From Dehalococcoidia bacterium (GTDB lineage: Bacteria; Chloroflexota; Dehalococcoidia; Lucifugimonadales; UBA3495): a DNA stretch of 64,000 bases. The notes beneath the pieces are model-generated. The model searched no databases, was not told where the DNA came from, and saw nothing but the letters and a program-made list of their open reading frames with translations. The stretch spans positions 15,492 to 79,491 of the forward strand of contig JAJEIA010000034.1 in NCBI GenBank assembly GCA_022823505.1. The letters run 5' to 3'. The number at the start of each line of letters is the position of its first letter. Position 1 is the first letter of the stretch. The translations under genes and the position numbers were made by a program. Below are positions 1,552 through 40,932 of the stretch, in pieces.

Positions 1552-3456
1552 CTACTCCTCCAGCGTCGTTATGTCCCCCGGGTCCAGGCCCAGCTCCTGT
1601 GCTTTCAGCAAACGGCGCATGATCTTGCCGGAGCGGGTCTTGGGCAGCGTCGGCGTGAACTCGATCTCCGAGGGGACGGCGATGGGTCCCAGCTCCCGGC
1701 GCACGTGCAACTGCAGGTCGTTGACCATGCGGTCGGAGCCCTCGCTGCCCATGCGCAGGGTGACGAAGCCCTTGATCACCTCGCCGCGCAGCGCGTCCGG
1801 CTTGCCGATGACCGCCGCCTCGGCTACCTCCGGGTGCGACACCAGCGCCGACTCCACCTCGGCGGAGCCGATGCGGTGGCCGGCAACGTTGAGCACGTCA
1901 TCGGCGCGGCCCACCACCATGTAGTAGCCGTCGGCGTCACGCAGGGCCACGTCGCCCGAAGAGTACACGCCGGGGATCTGCTGCCAGGTGTCGGCGTAGC
2001 GGTCCGGGTCGCCCCACACGGTGCGGGAGAAGTGCGGGAAGGGACGGCGGATCACCAGGAAGCCGCCCTTGTCCGGCTCCTCGATGGGCTGGCCCTCACG
2101 GTCGACGATGTCCATCACCGCGCCGGGCAGTGGCTTGCCCACCCGACCGGGACGGGTCGTCATGTTTGCGGTCGTACCCAGGCATGGGCCTCCCGTCTCG
2201 GTCTGCCACCAGTTGTCCACCATGTGGGCCCACTCGCCGCTGCCGCAGATGTGCTCATAGGCCCAGCGCAGCGCCTCGGGGTTGAGCGGCTCGCCGGCGC
2301 AGGTCAGGAAACGGAGCGAGCGCAGGTTGTACCGGCTGGCCGGCTCCTCGCCGTACCGCATCAGCATTCGCACCGCCGTGGGCGCGGTGAAGATGACGTT
2401 GACGCCGTACTTCTCGATGACCTCGTAGAAGACGGCGTTGTGGGGGAAGTCGGGCGCGCCCTCACGGAACACGGTGGTGGCGCCGGCGACCAGGGGAGCG
2501 TACACGATGTAGCTGTGACCAACGACCCAGCCGATATCGGACATGCACCAGAAGACGTCGTTGTCCTTCACATCCCAGAAGTTCTTGAAGTGGTAGTGGG
2601 TGCCCACCATGTAACCGCCGTGGACGTGGACGACGCCCTTGGGCCGGCCGGTGGTGCCGCTGGTGTAGAGGATGTACAGGGGCTCCTCGGCGTCCATGAC
2701 CTCGGCGGGACAGTCGATGCTGCTGCGCGCCATGAGGCCGTCGAAGTCGGTCTCACCGTCGCGCAGGCCCTCCAGAGCCAGCTCGCGGCGGAAGACGACG
2801 ACATGCTCCAGGCTGTCGCAGCCCTCCACGGCTTCGTCGGCGATGCCCTTGAGGTCGACGCGGTTGCCCCGGCGATAGCCGACATCCCCGGTGATTAGCG
2901 CCTTGGCGCTGGCGTCCTGGATGCGATCGCGCAGGGAGCCCACGCTGAAGCCGGCGTAGACCACGCTGTGGATGGCGCCGATGCGCGCGCAGGCCAGCAT
3001 GCTGATGGCGCCCTCGGGGGTCAGCGGCATGTAGATGACGACCCGGTCGCCCTTGCCCACGCCCAGGGACTTCAGCCCGTTGGCGAATCGATTGACCTGC
3101 TGGGCCAGGCGGGCGTAGGTGTAGACCTGCTCGGTGCCGTCCTCGCCCAGCCAGATCAGCGCCGCCTTGTTGCGCCGCTCGGTGGTAAGGTGGCGGTCCA
3201 GCGCATTGTAGGCGATGTTGGTCTGCCCGCCCACGAACCAACGGAAGTTGGGGTAGTCCCACTGGAAGACATCATCCCAGCGGCGGAACCAGTGTAGTTC
3301 CTCAGCGGCTTCGGCCCAGAAGCCTTCGGGATCCGCCACGGATCGGGCGTAGACGCCGTCGTAGTCGGACATGGTGGCCTGCTCGACCACGTGTGGCGGA
3401 GGCGGGATCTCCCCAGCCTCCTGCAAGAGATGGTCAATCTGTCCCTGCTGAACCAT
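1552..3456 (-). CDS. acs: Acetyl-CoA synthetase / acyl-CoA ligase (AMP-forming)
   Basis: 634 aa with the AMP-binding signature YTSGTTGRPKGV, an N-terminal DPEGFW region and a C-terminal PKTRSGKIMRR typical of Acs-family ligases. Confidence 0.9.
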   Translation of the reverse strand: MVQQGQIDHLLQEAGEIPPPPHVVEQATMSDYDGVYARSVADPEGFWAEAAEELHWFRRWDDVFQWDYPNFRWFVGGQTNIAYNALDRHLTTERRNKAALIWLGEDGTEQVYTYARLAQQVNRFANGLKSLGVGKGDRVVIYMPLTPEGAISMLACARIGAIHSVVYAGFSVGSLRDRIQDASAKALITGDVGYRRGNRVDLKGIADEAVEGCDSLEHVVVFRRELALEGLRDGETDFDGLMARSSIDCPAEVMDAEEPLYILYTSGTTGRPKGVVHVHGGYMVGTHYHFKNFWDVKDNDVFWCMSDIGWVVGHSYIVYAPLVAGATTVFREGAPDFPHNAVFYEVIEKYGVNVIFTAPTAVRMLMRYGEEPASRYNLRSLRFLTCAGEPLNPEALRWAYEHICGSGEWAHMVDNWWQTETGGPCLGTTANMTTRPGRVGKPLPGAVMDIVDREGQPIEEPDKGGFLVIRRPFPHFSRTVWGDPDRYADTWQQIPGVYSSGDVALRDADGYYMVVGRADDVLNVAGHRIGSAEVESALVSHPEVAEAAVIGKPDALRGEVIKGFVTLRMGSEGSDRMVNDLQLHVRRELGPIAVPSEIEFTPTLPKTRSGKIMRRLLKAQELGLDPGDITTLEE

Positions 3457-3595: not shown

Positions 3596-3991
3596 CTATG
3601 ACTCAGCCGGTCCTGGGAATACGGAGGCGAGATTCTGGTCGAAGGTCATCATTTCGCTAACGCCGCGACGTTGGCAGGAGGCGATATGACAGAGGTCGCG
3701 GGCGGACAGGCCGGGGTGTTGCTCGTGGAGCTGGCGGGCGAGCAGGACGTCTTCGCGTTCGAGGGGCCAGACTTCAACACCCAAGCGGTAGAGAATTTCC
3801 ACGGCCGAATTGAACACCTCTCCCCGGTCTACGCGTGGATAAGCGTGTGCCAATTCTTGCAACACCTCCGCAGAAGTGCACAGTTGGATGCCGTTAACGT
3901 ACGATTGGTCGAAGAAATTCCACGCCGTTTCTTGCAAGGGGTGAGGGTCTCCCACGGTATACATGAACACGTTTGTATCGACGAAAGTCAT
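3596..3991 (-). CDS. vapC: PIN-domain toxin (VapC-like)
   Basis: MTFVDTNVFMY... is a typical PIN N-terminus. The ATG at 3991 overlaps the upstream antitoxin stop (ATGA, 3988-3991). The track ORF's longer N-terminal extension is unlikely. Confidence 0.75.
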   Translation of the reverse strand: MTFVDTNVFMYTVGDPHPLQETAWNFFDQSYVNGIQLCTSAEVLQELAHAYPRVDRGEVFNSAVEILYRLGVEVWPLEREDVLLARQLHEQHPGLSARDLCHIASCQRRGVSEMMTFDQNLASVFPGPAES

Positions 3992-4269
3992 ACTTCGGGC
4001 AACCCGTGCCGACGGGACTCGTCGATATTCTTGAGGTGCTCTTCCCAATCGGGTTCGGGCCCCGGACCTGCGTTGGCTGCTATCTCTCGGAAAAACGCCC
4101 TCAGCTCTTCGACCGACCGAAATCTAACGTCGGCTGGAGCCGCTGGTCGCGGACTGTGCTGCCGCGCCACCGAAATCAGCCAGGCGTCCAGCGTCTTGCC
4201 TTCGCGCTGAGCCTGCTCAGCAAAGCGCTGGCGGTCTTCCTCGGGTATGTCGAGCTGGATCGTAGCCAT
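3988..4269 (-). CDS. Small antitoxin (VapB-like or RHH-like) paired with the PIN toxin
   Basis: 93 aa, charged, lying immediately upstream of the PIN gene with a 4-nt overlap. This is the classic type II TA arrangement. Confidence 0.65.
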   Translation of the reverse strand: MATIQLDIPEEDRQRFAEQAQREGKTLDAWLISVARQHSPRPAAPADVRFRSVEELRAFFREIAANAGPGPEPDWEEHLKNIDESRRHGLPEV

Positions 4270-4360: not shown

Positions 4361-4395
4361 CCGGGGACTTTCTACCTGAACGCAGGAGCCGCTCC

Positions 4396-5235
4396 ATGAC
4401 GACCCACACCGACGACTACGCGCACCCCGAATACCTGACCGACGCAGCGTGGGTGGCCGCTCACCTGGATGATCCCGACTTGGTGGTGCTGGATTGCGCC
4501 AACACCGCCGATGCCTGGCAACGGGGACACATTCCCGGCGCTCATCACGTCGCCGACAACTGGGCCAAGAACCCCGACACCAACCGGCAGCACGTCATGA
4601 CGCCCGAGCAGTTCAAGGCCATGGCCGAGGGCCTCGGCATCGGCGACGACACCACGGTGATCACCTACGACCATGCCCAGGGGCTCACGGCGGCGCGCAT
4701 CTGGTGGGTGTTCAGCTACTACGGCCACAGCAAGGTGAAGGTGCTCAACGGCGGCTGGCGGGCGTGGGTCAACGCCGGTCAATCCGTCGACTTCGGGCGA
4801 GCCAGGGCTCCGGCGGCGGTGACCTTCACGCCTCGGGCCGACGAGTCGTTCATCGCCACCGGCGACGAGCTCAAGGAGGCCTGCACTCTGGACAACGTGG
4901 TGGTCTGGGACGTGCGCAGCGACGCCGAGTGGGACGGCACTGCCGAGAACTATCGCAACAAGCGCGTGGGCCACGTGCCCGGCGCGGTGCACCTGGAGTG
5001 GTTCCACCTGATGGACCGCAACACCCACGAGTTCAAGCCGGCTGCCGAGATCCGGCGCATCCTGACGGAGCACGGCATCACCCCCGACAAGACGGCCTAC
5101 TCCTATTGACAGGCCGGCATCCGTGCGGCGCACGGAAACTTCGTACTCCGCCTGGTCGGTTTCGAGAACGCCAAAAACTACGATGCGTCCATGGGAGAGT
5201 GGGCCAACCGGGACGACACGCCCCTGACCGTGTGA
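4396..5235 (+). CDS. Two-domain rhodanese / thiosulfate sulfurtransferase with an in-frame TGA (5107-5109) at the catalytic Cys position. Either a selenocysteine candidate or a point-mutated pseudogene.
   Basis: The track ORF stops at ...PDKTAYSY*. The same frame continues without interruption as QAGIRAAHGNFVLRLVGFENAKNYDASMGEWANRDDTPLTV* (stop 5233-5235). This gives a roughly 279-aa protein of normal two-domain rhodanese length. The TGA sits exactly where the active-site loop C-x-x-G-x-R begins. Confidence 0.6.
5120..5136 (+). promoter_or_regulatory. Hairpin downstream of the in-frame UGA (SECIS-like candidate)
   Basis: tccgtgc-ggc-gcacgga is a perfect 7-bp stem starting 11 nt after the UGA, with a G-rich apical loop about 18-20 nt from the UGA. 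Confidence 0.35.
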
Positions 5236-5267: not shown

Positions 5268-5498
5268 ATGAAAATACTGAGCCCGACGATGAACATATCG
5301 GGCGGCGCCGCCATCGTTTCCGGTGGGGCGGCGCTGCTGTTGATCGGCTACCTGCTCTACCGGCAGACCCGACAAGCCGAAGGACGCGCGGTGGCTGCGG
5401 AGGCCACCGTGGAGCAGTTGCGCGCTGAAATGGCCGATCTGCGAGCCGAAACGGCGTCGCTGCGGGACCAGCGCCGGCGCAACCGTCGGAAGCGCTAG
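5268..5498 (+). CDS. Small membrane-anchored coiled-coil protein (hypothetical)
   Basis: MKILSPTMNISGGAAIVSGGAALLLIGYLLY (TM helix) followed by a charged helical tail. A GGAAGG RBS lies about 7 nt upstream. It forms the last 77 codons of a longer spurious track ORF. Confidence 0.45.
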   Translation: MKILSPTMNISGGAAIVSGGAALLLIGYLLYRQTRQAEGRAVAAEATVEQLRAEMADLRAETASLRDQRRRNRRKR

Positions 5499-5507
5499 CG
5501 CTCGGCG

Positions 5508-6056
5508 ATGGCCCGAAGGGTGCGGATACGGCGGGTCATCGATGGCGACTCGCTGGAGGTCAAGTACGCCGGGTTGTTCAGCTTCCTGCGCCGGCCGTTT
5601 CCGGTGCGGCTCTACGGCATCGATGCGCCGGAGTTGGCGCAGCCCTACGGACAGGAGTCGCGCAAGCAGCTCGAATCTCTGGTGCGCCGGGGCGGGATGC
5701 ACATGGAGGCGATGGCGACGGACCGTTACGGGCGCACGGTGGGGCTGCTCTACCGACGGCGCCGCCGGGGTCAATCGGTCAACGTGGAGATGGTGCGCGC
5801 CGGCATGGCGTGGTGGTATCGCCGCTACGGAGGCAGAGACTTGGGGTTCCCGCAGGCGGAGGCCGAGGCCAAGCGGCAGCGGCGCGGCCTGTGGCGGGAT
5901 GGCAACCGCGCCCGGGCTCCCTGGGATTATCGGGCAGACCTGCGGCGGGCGCGGCAACGGCGGCGACGCATCCGGCGCATTCTCACCTGGGCATTGACCG
6001 GCTTGTTTGCCATCGTGCTGGCGGGGATGGCTTTGGCGATCTACACTCAATTGTAA
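5508..6056 (+). CDS. Thermonuclease (staphylococcal nuclease-like) with a C-terminal TM anchor
   Basis: VIDGDSLEV...VRLYGIDAPE...GRTVG...VNVEMVRAGMAW...AEAKRQRRGLW are SNase-fold hallmarks. The C-terminal segment ILTWALTGLFAIVLAGMALAIY is hydrophobic. Confidence 0.8.
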   Translation: MARRVRIRRVIDGDSLEVKYAGLFSFLRRPFPVRLYGIDAPELAQPYGQESRKQLESLVRRGGMHMEAMATDRYGRTVGLLYRRRRRGQSVNVEMVRAGMAWWYRRYGGRDLGFPQAEAEAKRQRRGLWRDGNRARAPWDYRADLRRARQRRRRIRRILTWALTGLFAIVLAGMALAIYTQL

Positions 6057-6062
6057 TGGCGG

Positions 6063-7478
6063 CTACGGTACCAGGGGATGCCCGATCAGTCCCCAGTACG
6101 GGACCACCCCCAGCAGCAGCACCGCCGTGACCAGCACGGTCATGGTGATGGCCAGCCGGAAAATCTCGGGGTTGGAGATGTTGGCCCGCTGGAAGATGAA
6201 CACGCTGGCCGTCCCGCCCGCGCTGTAGTACACCACCGAGTCGCCCACCACCACCGCCGCCATGCCGCACACCAGCGGGTCCAGACCCAGCGACTCCGCG
6301 GCGGCCATGGTGACCGGGATCACCAGCGCCAGGTAGCCGGCGATGTTGGGCAGGATGAACCGCAGCATCGCGAAGCACACGCACAGCATCAACAGCACCA
6401 GCATGGGCGCGGACGCCAGTTGCGCCACGGCTCCAACCAGCGTCGCCGAGAACCACGCCGCCGCTCCGGTGGTCACCAGCGTATGTGACAACGACAGCGA
6501 TGTGGCGATGATGAAAAAGTTCGACCAGCCCAGGTCGCGCTCGAATTCCCGCCAGGTAAGGATCCCCACCCTGGGCAACAGGATCAGGCACATCGCGATA
6601 ATTGCGGGAACCGACGGATGCAGCCCGTGGGCGAAATCGGTGAACCAAAGCAGGGCGGTGAGCACAACGATTGCGCCGGCACGCAATTCCATGGGGCTGA
6701 TTCGGCCCAGCGACACGGAAGCGGCCACGTCGTCCTCTTCCAGGCGGAACCCCGACCGGTAGAAGACGAACACTACGATCCCGCCCACCACCAGGTTGGC
6801 GTAGAAGGGCACGCTCATCAGCACAAACCACTGGGACCACGAAAAATCGCCCAGCAGGCCGGAGGCAACCACGGGAGTTATGCCGCCGGCCAGCAGCGCG
6901 GTGGAGCCCAGCCGGTTCAGGCTCCCCATGGCAATCATCGTCGCCTTGTACAGCGGGTGTTCCTTGGGGATGTTCCAGCGCTCCAGGACCTGCTCGTACA
7001 CGTGCACCATGATGGCGCCCCGGGTGCTGGCCGAAGGCAGGGCGAAGGTCAGCGCGGCGAAGGAGAACAGCATCTGCACGTAGAGCAGGCGCGGACTTCC
7101 GGCCGCCCCGCGCATCAGGTAGATTGCCAGCCGCTCGGCCAGTCCCGAGCGATGCACCGCGAGCCCCAGGGTCAGGATACCGATCAGGAAGTAGGACACC
7201 GGTTGGGAGAAGCCGTACAGCGCGGGTCCGATGTCGGGCACGGCGCCCACCAACACCAGCAGCACCACGCCACCCACGCCGGCCACCGGGACAGGTATTG
7301 CCTCCGTGGCCCACAGGATCACCGCCAGGAGCATGACGGCCAGGGCACGCTGGCCCGGCTCGGTCAACCCCACGGGTGTGGGCATGAGCAGGATGCCCAG
7401 GAACACCGCGACGGCCAGCAACAGCTTGGCCGCCGTCCCGCCGCGCAAGGCGGGAGCAATGGTGGATATAGCGGACAA
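6063..7478 (-). CDS. Ion-transporter-superfamily anion permease (SLC13/DASS-like or ArsB/NhaD-like)
   Basis: 471 aa and polytopic. The N-terminus, ...LLMPTPVGLTEPGQRALAVMLLAVILWATEAIPVPV, is typical of DASS/CitT-like permeases. Confidence 0.65.
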   Translation of the reverse strand: MSAISTIAPALRGGTAAKLLLAVAVFLGILLMPTPVGLTEPGQRALAVMLLAVILWATEAIPVPVAGVGGVVLLVLVGAVPDIGPALYGFSQPVSYFLIGILTLGLAVHRSGLAERLAIYLMRGAAGSPRLLYVQMLFSFAALTFALPSASTRGAIMVHVYEQVLERWNIPKEHPLYKATMIAMGSLNRLGSTALLAGGITPVVASGLLGDFSWSQWFVLMSVPFYANLVVGGIVVFVFYRSGFRLEEDDVAASVSLGRISPMELRAGAIVVLTALLWFTDFAHGLHPSVPAIIAMCLILLPRVGILTWREFERDLGWSNFFIIATSLSLSHTLVTTGAAAWFSATLVGAVAQLASAPMLVLLMLCVCFAMLRFILPNIAGYLALVIPVTMAAAESLGLDPLVCGMAAVVVGDSVVYYSAGGTASVFIFQRANISNPEIFRLAITMTVLVTAVLLLGVVPYWGLIGHPLVP

Positions 7479-7525: not shown

Positions 7526-9799
7526 TTAGCGCTCGGTCTGCCTCAGGGGACTGCTGGTGACCCGGCTCACCGAGGTAACCCCGCGGATTCCCTCGATGCG
7601 GGAAAACACCCGGTTCAGCTCTTCCAGGTCCTTGACGTGGATGGTGAACTCCATGCTGACCGTGGCGTCCTCGTTCTCCCTGGTCACGGCCCAGGCGATG
7701 TTGATCTTGTCGTCCGACACCTTGGTGGTGACGTCGCGGAGCAGACCCACCCGGTCCATGGCCTCGATACGGATGCGCACCGGATAAAGTTCCTGTTTCT
7801 GCCCCCACGAAACCGGCACCAGGCGCTCCTGCTCGTCCTCGTTGAGCACGTTGATGCAGCCTTCCTTGTGCACGCTGACGCCGCGCGAGCGCGTTACGAA
7901 GCCGATGATCGGGTCGCCCTGGATTGGGTTGCAACACCGGGCGATGGTGGTCAGCAGATCGCCCACGCCCAGCACCGAAATGCCCGAGGTTGGGCTGGAC
8001 AGGGAGACCGACCCCTTCAGCCGGGGCATCCACGGCGCCTCGGCCATCTCATCGTTGCGGAACTGGGTCAGCCGGGCGGACAGGGCGGAGTCGCTCAATT
8101 CGCCGGAACCCAGGGCGGCCAGGAGGTCCTCCATGCTGTCGAAGCGGCACGCTTCGAGTACCTCGCGATCGGACATCTTGATGCCCATTCGTCGCAACTC
8201 GCGTCGCAGGAGTTCGCGCCCCCGGGTGATGTTGGCGCTGCGGGCCTGCCGGTTGAACCAGGAGCGGATCTTCTGCCGTGCGCTGTTGGTCGCCACGTAG
8301 CCGCGCGCCGGGTTCAGCCAGTCCGGCGATGGCCCCCGGCCTGTCTTTCCGGCCACCACCTCCACGGTGTCGCCGTTGTGCAGCGGGGTGTCCAGCGACA
8401 CCAGCTTGCCGTTCAATTTGGCCCCGGAGATGCGGTGACCCAGGTCGGTGTGGATCTTGTAGGCAAAGTCGATGGGAGTGGCGCCGGCGGCCATCTCCAC
8501 GATGTCACCCTTGGGGGTGTACACGAAGACCTGGTCGTGGAACAGGTCCTCCCGCACGCGTTCCAGGAACTCGTCGGTGTCCGGCGTCTCGCGCTGCCAC
8601 TCCAGCAACTGCCGGAGACCGGTCATCCGCTCCTCGAAGGAGGCATTCCCGTTGGGTGAGCCGCGCTGCTCCTTGTACCGCCAATGGGCGGCCACGCCAT
8701 ATTCCGCCACCTGGTGCATCTCGCGGGTCTTGATCTGCACTTCCAGCGGGTGACCGCCATCGCACAGCACCGTGGTATGCAGAGCCTGGTACATGTTCTT
8801 CTTCGGCGTGGCGATGTAATCGTCGAACTGGCCGGGGATCGGGCTCCACATGCGGTGAGTGATGCCCAGGGCGGTGTAGCAGTCGGCGATCTCGTCGACG
8901 ACGACGCGGAGCGCGTACAGGTCGTAGATGTCGCTGAGTTCCTTGCCGTCGGCCGCGTACTTCTCGATCTTGTTGTGGATGGAATAGATTCCCTTGGGAC
9001 GGCCGTTCACGTCAGCGCGGAGGCGGTTGTCCGCCAGCTCGGTCTTGAGCCGGTCGGCAACGTCCGCCACGTAGGCCTCGCGCTGGGACCTCCGGGCTGC
9101 CAGCATCTTGGAGATTTCCCGGTAACGGGTTTCATTCAGGTGCCGGAAAGCCAGGTCGTCAAGCTGCCATTTGAGCTCCCAGATGCCGAGCCGGTGGGCC
9201 AGGGGCGAATAAACGTCCAGGGTTTCCTGGGCGATGCGGCGGCGCTTGTCCTCGGGGAGCGCGTCCAGCGTGCGCATGTTGTGCAGCCGGTCGGCGAGCT
9301 TGATGAGCACCACGCGGATGTCCTCGGCCATGGCCACCAGCATCTTGCGCAGGCTTTCGGCGTAGAGGTTTTCCGCGGGCGCGGCGCCGTTGGTCTCGGC
9401 GTCCGGGGGTCGATAGTCGACGCGGGTCAGCTTGGTCACGCCGTCGACCAGTCGCGACACGTTGTGCCCGAACCGGACCTGCAGGTCAGCCACGTCGACG
9501 CCACAGTCCTCGACCACGTCGTGGAGGAGGGCAGCCATGATGGTGTCGGGGTCGAGAAACAGGTCGGCCAGGATGGTGGCGGCCGCCAGGGGGTGAACGA
9601 TGTACGGGTCGCCGGACCGGCGCATCTGCCCGTCGTGGCACTTTTCAGCGAAGTCGTAAGCTGACCTGATGCGTTCCAGTTGGTTCGCATCGTCCACGTA
9701 TTCAGAAACGCGAGCAATCAGATCGGTGGACTCGCTGGTGACCGCGACCATAGGCGCCCTCCTGATCGGCACAGGGTACGAGCGCGGTGTCCCCTCCAA
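7526..9799 (-). CDS. rel: Bifunctional (p)ppGpp synthetase/hydrolase (RelA/SpoT homologue)
   Basis: 757 aa. It has an HD hydrolase region (HPLAAATILADL...LLHDVVED), a synthetase region (YRSLHT-like QALHTTV) and TGS and C-terminal ACT-like regions. Confidence 0.95.
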   Translation of the reverse strand: MEGTPRSYPVPIRRAPMVAVTSESTDLIARVSEYVDDANQLERIRSAYDFAEKCHDGQMRRSGDPYIVHPLAAATILADLFLDPDTIMAALLHDVVEDCGVDVADLQVRFGHNVSRLVDGVTKLTRVDYRPPDAETNGAAPAENLYAESLRKMLVAMAEDIRVVLIKLADRLHNMRTLDALPEDKRRRIAQETLDVYSPLAHRLGIWELKWQLDDLAFRHLNETRYREISKMLAARRSQREAYVADVADRLKTELADNRLRADVNGRPKGIYSIHNKIEKYAADGKELSDIYDLYALRVVVDEIADCYTALGITHRMWSPIPGQFDDYIATPKKNMYQALHTTVLCDGGHPLEVQIKTREMHQVAEYGVAAHWRYKEQRGSPNGNASFEERMTGLRQLLEWQRETPDTDEFLERVREDLFHDQVFVYTPKGDIVEMAAGATPIDFAYKIHTDLGHRISGAKLNGKLVSLDTPLHNGDTVEVVAGKTGRGPSPDWLNPARGYVATNSARQKIRSWFNRQARSANITRGRELLRRELRRMGIKMSDREVLEACRFDSMEDLLAALGSGELSDSALSARLTQFRNDEMAEAPWMPRLKGSVSLSSPTSGISVLGVGDLLTTIARCCNPIQGDPIIGFVTRSRGVSVHKEGCINVLNEDEQERLVPVSWGQKQELYPVRIRIEAMDRVGLLRDVTTKVSDDKINIAWAVTRENEDATVSMEFTIHVKDLEELNRVFSRIEGIRGVTSVSRVTSSPLRQTER

Positions 9800-10687: not shown

Positions 10688-11635
<948 letters not shown>

Positions 11636-22422: not shown

Positions 22423-22534
22423 ATCGGTCCGAAACGCGTGTTGCCCTGCCACCACCGGCCAATTAGAATGCCGTCACGCTAAATCGATGGCGTAACCGGT
22501 GGCAGGATCACACGAGATAGAGGAGACCGGACAG

Positions 22535-23917
22535 ATGGCGCTTTGGAGACCCGACCCCACCTTTTATCCCTCGGCGCGGCTGGCGATGGAGGCTCCGCAG
22601 GAGCGGCTGGCCTACGTTGCCGTCCTCAACCCTGGTTCGGGCGAACCGGACGCGATGACCGTGGTGGACTGCGACCCCAACTCATCGTCTTATTCCCAGG
22701 TGGTCCACTCGTTGGAAATGCCCCACGTGGGCGATGAGCTGCACCATTTCAACTGGAACGCCTGTAGCGCGGCCCTCTGCCCGTCTTCGGCCCACCCCCA
22801 TCTGGAACGCCGTTACCTGGTGGTTCCCAGCCTGGCCAACAGCCGCATTTACATTATCGACACGCAACCCGACCCGGAGCGGCCCCGGATCGTCAAGACC
22901 ATTGAGGCCGAACAGGTGCACCGGGCCGGCTACAGCCGCCCTCACACCGTTCACTGCGGGCCGGACGCGATTTACGTAAGCGCCCTCGGCTCCGCGGAGG
23001 GCGAGCGCCCGGGCGGCATCATGCTGCTGGATCACTATACCTTTGAGCCCATCGGGCCCTGGGAATTGGACCGGGGACCACAGGAACTGGCCTACGATTT
23101 CTGGTGGCACATCGGCATTGACACCATGATGACCAGCGAGTGGGGCACCCCTGAGATGTTCGAGAGCGGGGCCCGACTCGAGGACGTCGTTGGGCAGAAT
23201 TACGGCCACGTGCTGCACTTTTGGGATATGCGCCGCCGTGCCCACCGCCAGGCAGTCGACCTGGGAGCGCAGCATCAGATGGCCCTGGAGCTGCGCCCGG
23301 CGCACAACCCGACCCGGCACTACGGTTTCTGTGGGGTGGTCGTAAGCACCGAGGACCTGTCGGGCTCCATCTTCCTGTGGCACCGCGACGGCGACCAGTG
23401 GGCCGCGACCAAGGTAATTTCCATCCCGGCCGAACCTGCCGACGCCTCGGAGTTGCCGCCGGCGTTGCAGCCCCTGGGCGCCGTGCCGCCGCTGATCACG
23501 GACATCGACCTGTCGCTGGACGACCGTTTCCTCTACATCTCGTGCTGGGGCACCGGCAAGCTGCTGCAGTTCGACGTTTCGGACCCCTTCAACCCCAGGC
23601 AGACCGGCGAGCTGGAAATGGGCGGAGTCGTCCGCCAGGCTCCCCATCCCAACGGGGCCGCGCTGACCGGCGGGCCGCAGATGGTGGAAATCAGTCGTGA
23701 CGGCCGTCGGGTTTATCTCACCAATTCCCTGTATTCCTCGTGGGACGACCAGTTTTATCCCAACGGGCTGAACGGCTGGCTCAGCCGCATCGACGTGAAC
23801 CCTGAGGGCGGGATGTCGGTCAACCCCGATTTCTTCGTAGATTACGGCAAGACGCGCACCCACCAGGTGCGGCTGCAGGGAGGCGACGCCTCGTCCGATA
23901 CGTACTGCTTCCCATAG
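22535..23917 (+). CDS. Selenium-binding protein family (SBP56) / methanethiol-oxidase-like beta-propeller
   Basis: MALWRPDPTFYPS...LAYVAVLNP...HHFNWNAC...SRIYIIDT...HTVHCGPD...YISCWGTG are SBP56 hallmarks along the full length. A GAGGAG RBS precedes the ATG at 22535. Confidence 0.9.
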   Translation: MALWRPDPTFYPSARLAMEAPQERLAYVAVLNPGSGEPDAMTVVDCDPNSSSYSQVVHSLEMPHVGDELHHFNWNACSAALCPSSAHPHLERRYLVVPSLANSRIYIIDTQPDPERPRIVKTIEAEQVHRAGYSRPHTVHCGPDAIYVSALGSAEGERPGGIMLLDHYTFEPIGPWELDRGPQELAYDFWWHIGIDTMMTSEWGTPEMFESGARLEDVVGQNYGHVLHFWDMRRRAHRQAVDLGAQHQMALELRPAHNPTRHYGFCGVVVSTEDLSGSIFLWHRDGDQWAATKVISIPAEPADASELPPALQPLGAVPPLITDIDLSLDDRFLYISCWGTGKLLQFDVSDPFNPRQTGELEMGGVVRQAPHPNGAALTGGPQMVEISRDGRRVYLTNSLYSSWDDQFYPNGLNGWLSRIDVNPEGGMSVNPDFFVDYGKTRTHQVRLQGGDASSDTYCFP

Positions 23918-40284: not shown

Positions 40285-40932
40285 ATGACCCTCGTTGAAA
40301 AATACGCCCTGCTCCCTGAGGAGATCGACCGCCAGAGCCTGGTGATGGTCGCTGACAGCCTGCGCGGCGACGAGGACGCCGCCAACCTGCCGGAAGCGGA
40401 GCGCTACGTGCTGCACCGTATCGTCCGCGCCGAGGGCGACCCTGAGATCGCCGCCGACGTGCGTTTCAGCGATGGCGCGGTGGACGCAGCGCTGGCTTCG
40501 CTGCGGGACGTACGACGCGTGGTCACCGACGTGCGCATGGTGCAGGTTGGTATCTCCCGGGCGGCCTTGGCCCGGCGTGGAGTGGAAACGGCGTGCCTCA
40601 TCGACGCGCCCGAGGTCGCGGAGCGCGCCCGCCGCGAGGGCACCACTCGCAGCGTCGCCGCCGTGCGCGAGTTGGCCCCGCAGATGGACGGAGCGGTGCT
40701 GGCCATCGGCAACGCGCCCACCGCCCTGCTGGCGCTGCTGGACCTGATCGACGAAGGCCAGGTGTCGCCGGCCGCCGTGATCGGGATGCCCGTGGGTTTC
40801 GTGGCCTGCCCCGAATCCAAAGCCGAACTGGCGGCGCGCAGTGTGCCGCATATCACCATACTGGGACGACGCGGGGGGAGCTCTGCCGCTGCTGCCACCG
40901 TGAACGCCCTGCTTGACCTGCTGGAGGACTGA
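40285..40932 (+). CDS. cbiC: Precorrin-8X / cobalt-precorrin-8 methylmutase
   Basis: 215 aa. ...VTDVRMV...LAIGNAPTALLALLDLI...VIGMPVGFV is the CobH/CbiC pattern. Confidence 0.9.
   Translation: MTLVEKYALLPEEIDRQSLVMVADSLRGDEDAANLPEAERYVLHRIVRAEGDPEIAADVRFSDGAVDAALASLRDVRRVVTDVRMVQVGISRAALARRGVETACLIDAPEVAERARREGTTRSVAAVRELAPQMDGAVLAIGNAPTALLALLDLIDEGQVSPAAVIGMPVGFVACPESKAELAARSVPHITILGRRGGSSAAAATVNALLDLLED

Follow-up and report, generated by a model that had tools for sequence, protein, structure and literature searches.

We found that positions 4396 to 5235 of the forward strand of a 64,000-nucleotide stretch from a Dehalococcoidia bacterium (contig JAJEIA010000034.1, positions 15,492 to 79,491; the whole stretch is called the window below) very probably form a single gene, which would encode a two-domain rhodanese-type sulfurtransferase with selenocysteine (Sec) as its nucleophile. 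The TGA at 5107 to 5109, in the frame of this gene and at the position of the catalytic nucleophile, is with equally high confidence predicted to be read as Sec. Comparison with related sequences established what carries this assignment, namely a conserved UGA, a translated tail behind it, the pairing of Sec with Cys in homologs, and an RNA-level constraint on a hairpin that fits the rules for bacterial selenocysteine insertion sequences (bSECIS).

Relatives were collected in a protein search with the read-through rhodanese, in which Cys was substituted at the TGA, as a query. This gave 1442 matches, of which the best 120 were examined. We read the DNA of 58 Dehalococcoidia/SAR202 species-representative genomes (many of them sponge-derived), 80 metagenome contigs (78 readable), and 2 distant representatives, which amounts to 138 readable relatives, and 139 Sec-type sequences were compared. 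Hairpin types were assigned in 136 aligned sequences that include the window's own; the ratios of nonsynonymous to synonymous change (pN/pS) were pooled over 59 sequences, and codon invariance was counted in 52 main-clade sequences. More distant homologs were taken from a library clustered at 50% identity.

Read-through of the UGA would complete a two-domain rhodanese

The open reading frame (ORF) at 4396 to 5109 (+), whose ATG lies 7 nucleotides (nt) downstream of a ribosome-binding site read from the sequence (AGGAG, 4384 to 4388, +), encodes 237 amino acids (aa) and ends in ...ITPDKTAYSY before the TGA. Without a change of frame, a further 41 open codons (QAGIRAAHGNFVLRLVGFENAKNYDASMGEWANRDDTPLTV) lead to a second TGA at 5233 to 5235 (+), which appears to be the true stop codon, as the frame ends at the homologous place in nearly all relatives. 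These features confirm the original prediction, which had reported an ORF ending in AYSY-TGA and 41 further open codons. The full-length coding sequence would thus comprise 279 codons plus stop, with Sec as codon 238, and the C-terminal tail (5110 to 5232, +) would contribute the loop residues Q-A-G-I-R-A and the remainder of the catalytic rhodanese domain.

Two PF00581 rhodanese stretches were recognized in the read-through protein (Pfam, E = 2e-34), the residues 8 to 277 of which align with residues 3 to 280 of the Thermus thermophilus rhodanese 1UAR (E = 2e-42). End-to-end alignments were likewise obtained to the Mycobacterium tuberculosis structures 3HWI and 3AAX, to Azotobacter RhdA 1E0C, and to Escherichia coli SseA 1URH. 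The TGA column coincides with the catalytic Cys of 1UAR (VVYC-RIAERSSH), 3HWI, and 3AAX, with ...ktaysyCqagiraahgnfvlr of the Cys-substituted query facing ...kdivvyCriaersshswfvlk of 1UAR, which bears out the earlier claim that the TGA replaces the nucleophilic Cys. As in COG2897-type enzymes, the rhodanese domains stand in tandem with the catalytic one at the C-terminal side, and the nucleophile, here Sec for Cys, heads a six-residue loop (U-Q-A-G-I-R-A aligned to C-R-I-A-E-R-S). 3-Mercaptopyruvate sulfurtransferases (3-MST) carry the active-site loop C-G-[ST]-G-V-T. The best NCBIfam match, NF008557 (SseA), covered 273 of its 281 profile positions and shares the two rhodanese domains, as does 1URH; because its score of 118.1 bits lies far under the curated cutoff of 250 bits and the loop is unlike that of 3-MST, we rejected the assignment of the gene as an SseA/3-mercaptopyruvate sulfurtransferase equivalog.

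The TGA and the tail behind it are conserved

TGA occupied the catalytic codon at all 58 genome loci, all 78 readable metagenome loci, and both distant representatives, that is, in 138 of 138 relatives spanning 45 to 96% protein identity; at the genome and metagenome loci (58/58 and 78/78), it is the codon that directly follows [AV][YF][ST]Y. The tail of 41 to 42 codons is open and conserved in the relatives. Pooled pN/pS amounted to 0.233 for codons 1 to 237, to 0.159 for the tail, and to 0.140 for the part of the tail past the hairpin, indicating that purifying selection on the tail (0.14 to 0.16) is stronger than on the upstream part (0.23). Synonymous change in the tail is saturated, with a synonymous divergence (dS) that reaches about 1 or higher between distant sequences; the window and one of the related loci (L037), for example, differ in the tail by 20 synonymous changes and 1 nonsynonymous change (dS 1.65). 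In-frame ATG, GTG, and TTG are absent from the tail until codon 266, and the tail therefore cannot be produced independently.

The nearest full-length homologs (39 to 44% identity, 279 to 283 aa; P0131, P0132, and P0138) have Cys at the corresponding place, in loops of the form C-Q-[AS]-G-[IV]-R-[AS] (C-Q-A-G-V-R-A, C-Q-S-G-V-R-A, and C-Q-A-G-I-R-A). The aligned position was Cys in 8 of the 8 full-length homologs read, and never Trp or Gly, while no ortholog of at least 58% identity was found with Cys at the catalytic codon. At the level of aligned sequences, the catalytic site is thus a classical Cys/Sec pair. Among the representatives of the 50% library at 37 to 46% identity, many stop immediately ahead of the catalytic residue (...HTY, ...IAH), and the DNA of the two distant representatives that were read (L144 and L145) contains the TGA, a Q[AG]GIRAAHG tail, and a hairpin identical to that of the window.

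The immediate surroundings of the UGA are fixed as well. The base on its 5′ side is T in every aligned sequence shown, and C follows it everywhere, which may reflect a recoding context effect. The codon before the UGA (5104 to 5106) was TAT in all 52 main-clade sequences, and the Tyr codon two codons earlier was TAC in 45 and TAT in 7 of them.

Database entries stop before the active site

The best 120 of the 1442 matches (58 to 90% identity, 232 to 267 aa) all cover 82 to 85% of the query, which means that every gene call among them terminates at one common position. All named members listed from NCBI, JGI, and UniRef likewise end at the TGA, and the truncated calls are entered as "sulfurtransferase" with 232 to 253 aa. 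As such entries are devoid of the active site, inferences on sulfur metabolism in SAR202/Dehalococcoidia that build on them rest on a decapitated enzyme.

Some of the retrieved entries appeared to be longer, and these were rejected as full-length or Cys-containing forms. An ENA entry of 281 aa (P0314, from a 90% cluster) is a spurious frameshifted call that runs in another frame, and P0337, P0346, and P0049 are N-terminal over-extensions. A truncated copy of the gene is filed under the name of the sponge host, as "Sulfur carrier protein TtuD [Geodia barretti]" (CAI8029023.1/UniRef100_A0AA35SFH1; P0286). It is present on 24 contigs, the longest of 2.46 Mb, and most likely derives from symbiont contigs within the sponge assembly.

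A frozen hairpin follows the UGA

Directly downstream of the UGA, the gene contains a putative SECIS apical hairpin (5120 to 5136, +; UCCGUGC-GGC-GCACGGA) with a perfect 7–base pair (bp) stem and a GGC loop. It is separated from the UGA by 10 nt, such that it begins, as had been noted in the original prediction, at the 11th nucleotide, and the distance from the UGA to its loop is 17 nt. Folded alone, the 19-nt hairpin reaches −10.7 kcal/mol, compared to −4.1 ± 2.1 kcal/mol for shuffled sequences (z = −3.1; 0 of 200 shuffles fold as well). The published bSECIS rules (PMC13188914) ask for a loop of 3 to 9 nt with G within its first two positions, an upper stem of 4 to 16 bp, a UGA-to-loop distance of 16 to 37 nt, and a minimum free energy of −7.5 kcal/mol or lower; the window hairpin lies within all of these limits. 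We quantified how often such an arrangement would occur by chance, and found that, among 1620 TGA trinucleotides across the window, 20 (1.2%) precede a perfect hairpin of at least 7 bp with bSECIS geometry, and 3.0% one of at least 6 bp. Hence, the hairpin is uncommon but not decisive alone, and it is the comparative evidence that decides. Rfam gave no match at the rhodanese locus.

Part of this comparative evidence comes from the codons that make up the hairpin. The codons ATC CGT GCG GCG CAC (242 to 246) as well as TAT-TGA (237 to 238) were invariant in 52 of the 52 main-clade sequences, while comparable four- and sixfold degenerate codons elsewhere in the gene occur in three to five synonymous forms; the frozen codons include CGT for Arg, which is little used elsewhere. 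The mean codon entropy was 0.18 over codons 239 to 248 versus 0.88 elsewhere, the lowest sliding window of the gene. A zone of suppressed synonymous variation accordingly extends over codons 237 to 248 (5104 to 5139, +), as would be expected for the RNA-level footprint of a recoding signal. The pattern TGA-N11-CCGTGCGGCGCACGG is present exactly once per locus in 70 loci. The conserved core of the hairpin spans 5121 to 5135. The U5120-A5136 pair outside it is variable, since the GGN codon is free at its third position.

Two mutually exclusive hairpins occupy the same gene

The 136 aligned sequences split into two mutually exclusive types. In type H (n = 69, the window included), the tail reads ...AAHG..., and the RNA forms CCGUGC-GGC-GCACGG at −10.7 kcal/mol. 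In type N (n = 67, marine SAR202), the tail reads ...AANS[LV]FVM..., and the hairpin is GGCGAACA-GU[C/U/G]-UGUUCGUC, which lies 8 nt further downstream and has its loop 25 nt after the UGA. The type-N hairpin fits the bSECIS rules as well: Its loop is GUN, its stem has 8 bp, the spacing is 25 nt, and the folding energy is −9.6 kcal/mol. Its site does not overlap with that of type H, and it is frozen there in a subclade comprising the loci L052 to L056 and L064 to L126.

The two types each provide a reference for the other. In type N, the Ile codons (ATC/ATT/ATA) and Arg codons (AGA/CGA/CGC/AGG/CGG/CGT) vary freely, and in type H, it is the codons under the type-N stem that vary, while the type-H hairpin remains nucleotide-identical even across proteins that are only about 45% identical. 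Such reciprocal freezing serves as a strong internal control, in which the constrained nucleotides follow the hairpin and not the protein.

In a rough neighbor-joining tree, type H was basal (with L144 and L145 included) and type N nested, with short internal branches, a topology that suggests that type N is derived. There is, in our estimate, an even chance that one SECIS was replaced by another in place within one orthologous selenoprotein family. If so, the family would be a natural experiment in the coevolution of SelB and SECIS, and the two mutually exclusive hairpins would offer a clean comparative system for SelB recognition.

Other explanations for the in-frame UGA

The alternative that survives best is recoding of the UGA to Cys or Trp, either by near-cognate read-through or by a tRNA(Cys) of the SelC* type (anticodon UCA) that a SelB paralog would deliver. 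SelC* tRNA(Cys) systems that decode UGA as Cys do occur in some anaerobes (Mukai et al.), and a Cys product would likewise be an active rhodanese. However, these systems are reported from Firmicutes, Thermodesulfobacteria, Nitrospirae, and Proteobacteria, not from Chloroflexi (Mukai et al.). For a Cys product, one would moreover expect a plain TGC or TGT at least once, whereas TGA is kept throughout the relatives, and SelA, SelB, and SelD are reported for a close relative, bin87 (see below). We consider recoding to Cys or Trp improbable.

Less probable still, the 237-aa product might be the functional protein, with the 126 nt downstream kept as a separate small ORF or as a regulatory RNA for the nuclease gene that follows. 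Conceivably, the hairpin might work as an attenuator or a terminator that separates the rhodanese gene from the staphylococcal-nuclease (SNase) gene. Yet, the variation of the tail is codon-patterned in the rhodanese frame, with synonymous changes far above nonsynonymous ones, and the tail offers no in-frame start before codon 266. Furthermore, it can be aligned residue for residue to solved rhodaneses, in the active-site loop as well as in the C-terminal elements, while the 237-aa product would be left without the nucleophile and the entire active-site loop.

The original prediction had posed a choice between a Sec-rhodanese that gene callers truncate and a recent TGC/TGT-to-TGA inactivation. 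The former stood, by virtue of the conserved TGA and the pN/pS of the tail; the latter, by which a nonsense mutation, or an error of sequencing or assembly, would leave an inactive or decaying 237-aa product, we regard as scarcely credible. It would take a single nucleotide change, and the automated annotations retrieved do all end the gene at the TGA. However, the TGA is kept in independent assemblies, i.e., in 58 species-level genomes and 78 metagenome contigs, and the tail is free of frameshifts and stops at a pN/pS of 0.14 to 0.16; the only disrupted copy seen is P0314, an isolated frameshifted gene call. The outcomes that the original prediction had named as speaking against Sec did not occur where we looked for them: Cys-bearing orthologs were absent at 58% identity and above, the hairpin was kept, and the tail was undisrupted. 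Taken together, the pN/pS of the tail, its lack of an independent start, and a fragment without an active site exclude the pseudogene, sequencing-error, and separate-ORF readings.

We exclude a reassigned genetic code (UGA read as Trp or Gly), which has a negligible probability and nothing in its favor beyond the in-frame TGA itself. Against it, TGA terminates numerous long, coding-like frames of high third-position GC, the only other continuations in frame past a TGA are ordinary junctions to a gene that has an ATG of its own, and homologs carry Cys, never Trp or Gly, at the aligned position. TGA ends 23 of the 67 coding-like stop-to-stop segments in the window (a count that includes some antisense shadow segments), in keeping with the earlier remark that TGA is a normal stop elsewhere in it. 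The continuations past TGA at 40930 and 34064, which we considered as further selenoprotein candidates, are such normal junctions, which leaves the rhodanese as the window's sole selenoprotein candidate.

Selenocysteine machinery and a proposed mechanism

Several observations weigh against the reading of the UGA as Sec. First, tblastn with E. coli SelA, SelB, and SelD gave no match in the window, the 61 genome loci, or the 80 metagenome loci searched, and ARAGORN, which may miss the 8/4 form of tRNA(Sec), found no tRNA(Sec) in the window or the related loci, leaving the 64-kb window and the ±10-kb flanks of 58 related loci without selA, selB, selD, or tRNA(Sec). This absence is uninformative, because sel genes need not be linked to the rhodanese. 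Second, longer windows around the hairpin are not unusually stable (71 nt, z = −0.86; 44 nt, z = +0.10), and it is the 19-nt hairpin alone that is exceptional. Third, the alignment of orthologs that had been proposed as a check in the original prediction yielded TGA in 138 of 138 relatives and a conserved hairpin, but no covariation: The stems are invariant in both hairpin types, compensatory double substitutions were not found, and the support for pairing therefore rests on conservation rather than on covariation. Fourth, the literature searched contained no biochemical demonstration of any Sec-rhodanese.

Good indirect support for Sec comes from a close relative and from the phylum. One of the related loci (L011) lies on contig MPNC01000003.1 of the SAR202 cluster bacterium bin87, and its rhodanese ortholog is 90% identical to that of the window and has both the TGA and the hairpin. 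The corresponding metagenome-assembled genome (MAG) of this Chloroflexi SAR202 bacterium (MPNC00000000) is 91% complete (Slaby et al. 2017). Its listed COG counts are 3 for COG1921 (SelA), 1 for COG3276 (SelB), and 1 for COG0709 (SelD) (Slaby et al. 2017, Table S4), and SelA and SelB co-occur in most of the sponge-symbiont bins of that study (Slaby et al. 2017). In addition, tRNA(Sec) species with the unusual 8/4 structure are reported from Chloroflexi (Mukai et al.).

We infer a mechanism in which SelB, in complex with GTP and Sec-tRNA(Sec), would bind the apical hairpin and decode the UGA while competing with release factor 2. Translation would then run 41 codons further and complete the loop U-Q-A-G-I-R-A together with the C-terminal rhodanese domain, with selenium incorporated at codon 238. 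Compared to Cys, Sec has a lower pKa and a higher nucleophilicity. Presumably, the selenolate would take over the sulfane sulfur of a donor (e.g., thiosulfate), and the resulting enzyme Se-S intermediate would pass it on to an acceptor; sulfane sulfur transfer through such an intermediate is the likely chemistry, and the enzyme may also have a role in selenium trafficking.

Comparison with known systems

The gene is very probably a genuine selenoprotein gene, of a kind predicted two decades ago and not a new kind of system. As the original prediction had correctly stated, Sec-containing rhodaneses were predicted from marine metagenomes: A "rhodanese-related sulfurtransferase (COG2897)" was proposed as a new selenoprotein family, with a predicted SECIS, on the basis of three sequences from the Sargasso Sea (Zhang, Fomenko & Gladyshev 2005, PMC1088965), and a 2026 review lists a "rhodanese-like form 4" with the motif UxxG, PF00581, and the representative MCY3690685.1. 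The window gene shares with it the two-domain COG2897 type, the UxxG motif (here U-Q-A-G), Sec at the position of the catalytic Cys, a SECIS directly downstream, and a marine origin, the match being one of architecture and motif; the published representatives AACY01016424 and MCY3690685.1 were not among the cluster members listed in our cluster look-ups. It differs in that the window copy belongs to a GC-rich clade with many MAGs from sponges, and in that 139 sequences with two alternative SECIS hairpins are now available, compared to three in 2005. New here are the breadth of the family, with TGA in all 138 relatives, the truncation of all the annotations retrieved, and the two hairpins with their reciprocal freezing.

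The Cys-type rhodaneses 1UAR, CysA2/3 (3HWI, 3AAX), and RhdA 1E0C have the same fold and align end to end (E = 2e-42 to 1e-31), but use an ordinary Cys codon and need no recoding signal. Their loop, C-R-I-[AG]-E-R, has the Arg at +5 in common with U-Q-A-G-I-R of the window and differs from it at +1 and +4; by this Arg, the window loop resembles Thermus and mycobacterial entries named thiosulfate sulfurtransferase. In the E. coli fdhF SECIS, the hairpin begins 11 nt downstream of the UGA and presents a G-containing apical loop to SelB. The window hairpin shares this start and a G-containing loop, and type N has a G-U dinucleotide in its loop, whereas the window stem is short and perfect, lacks a bulged U, and carries a GGC loop of 3 nt; binding of the window hairpin by SelB is a prediction.

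If one SECIS was indeed replaced by another in place, the Sec-rhodanese would also be a recurrent selenoprotein of SAR202/Dehalococcoidia, and a lineage that is abundant in the ocean and lives as a sponge symbiont would have its sulfur-transfer metabolism tied to the supply of selenium. The gene indicates the use of selenium in a sponge-associated Chloroflexota lineage, and the Sec/Cys family, which comprises 139 Sec-type sequences here and has Cys forms at about 40% identity, is populated well enough to ask why a sulfurtransferase would prefer selenium.

Genomic neighborhood

Downstream of the rhodanese, the window contains a 76-aa ORF with no Pfam match (5268 to 5498, +), the SNase homolog (5508 to 6056, +), a DASS Na:sulfate/dicarboxylate symporter (6063 to 7478, −), RelA/SpoT (7526 to 9799, −), and a phosphoribosyl pyrophosphate (PRPP) synthetase (10688 to 11635, −). 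The order SNase, DASS, RelA, and Prs is syntenic in the main clade, and in many relatives SNase starts 8 to 41 nt after the true rhodanese stop, such that the rhodanese tail fills what appears to be an intergenic gap. The 76-aa ORF was seen in 4 of the 58 related loci, and elsewhere SNase directly follows the rhodanese stop. A functional link through these neighbors, or through the acetyl-CoA-synthetase-like gene and the VapBC pair on the other side, was considered and rejected, as they are syntenic in relatives but have no evident tie to selenium metabolism.

On the upstream side, a divergent VapBC pair, consisting of a PIN-domain (VapC-like) gene and its small upstream partner (3596 to 4269, −), directly precedes the rhodanese, and an acetyl-CoA-synthetase-like gene lies beyond it (1552 to 3456, −). 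The VapBC pair occurs in only part of the related loci and thus looks like a variable insertion; VapBC-type COGs are enriched in sponge symbionts (Slaby et al. 2017).

Farther away, the SBP56 gene (56-kDa selenium-binding protein family; 22499 to 23917, +), which the original prediction had offered as a weak thematic link, is real and full length (Pfam, E = 7e-187; it ends in TAG), and we found no connection between it and the Sec-rhodanese. The only Rfam match of the window at gathering level is a full-length cobalamin riboswitch aptamer (RF00174; 62096 to 62320, +; 72 bits, E = 8e-16), and a cbiD gene had also been mentioned for the window in the original prediction.

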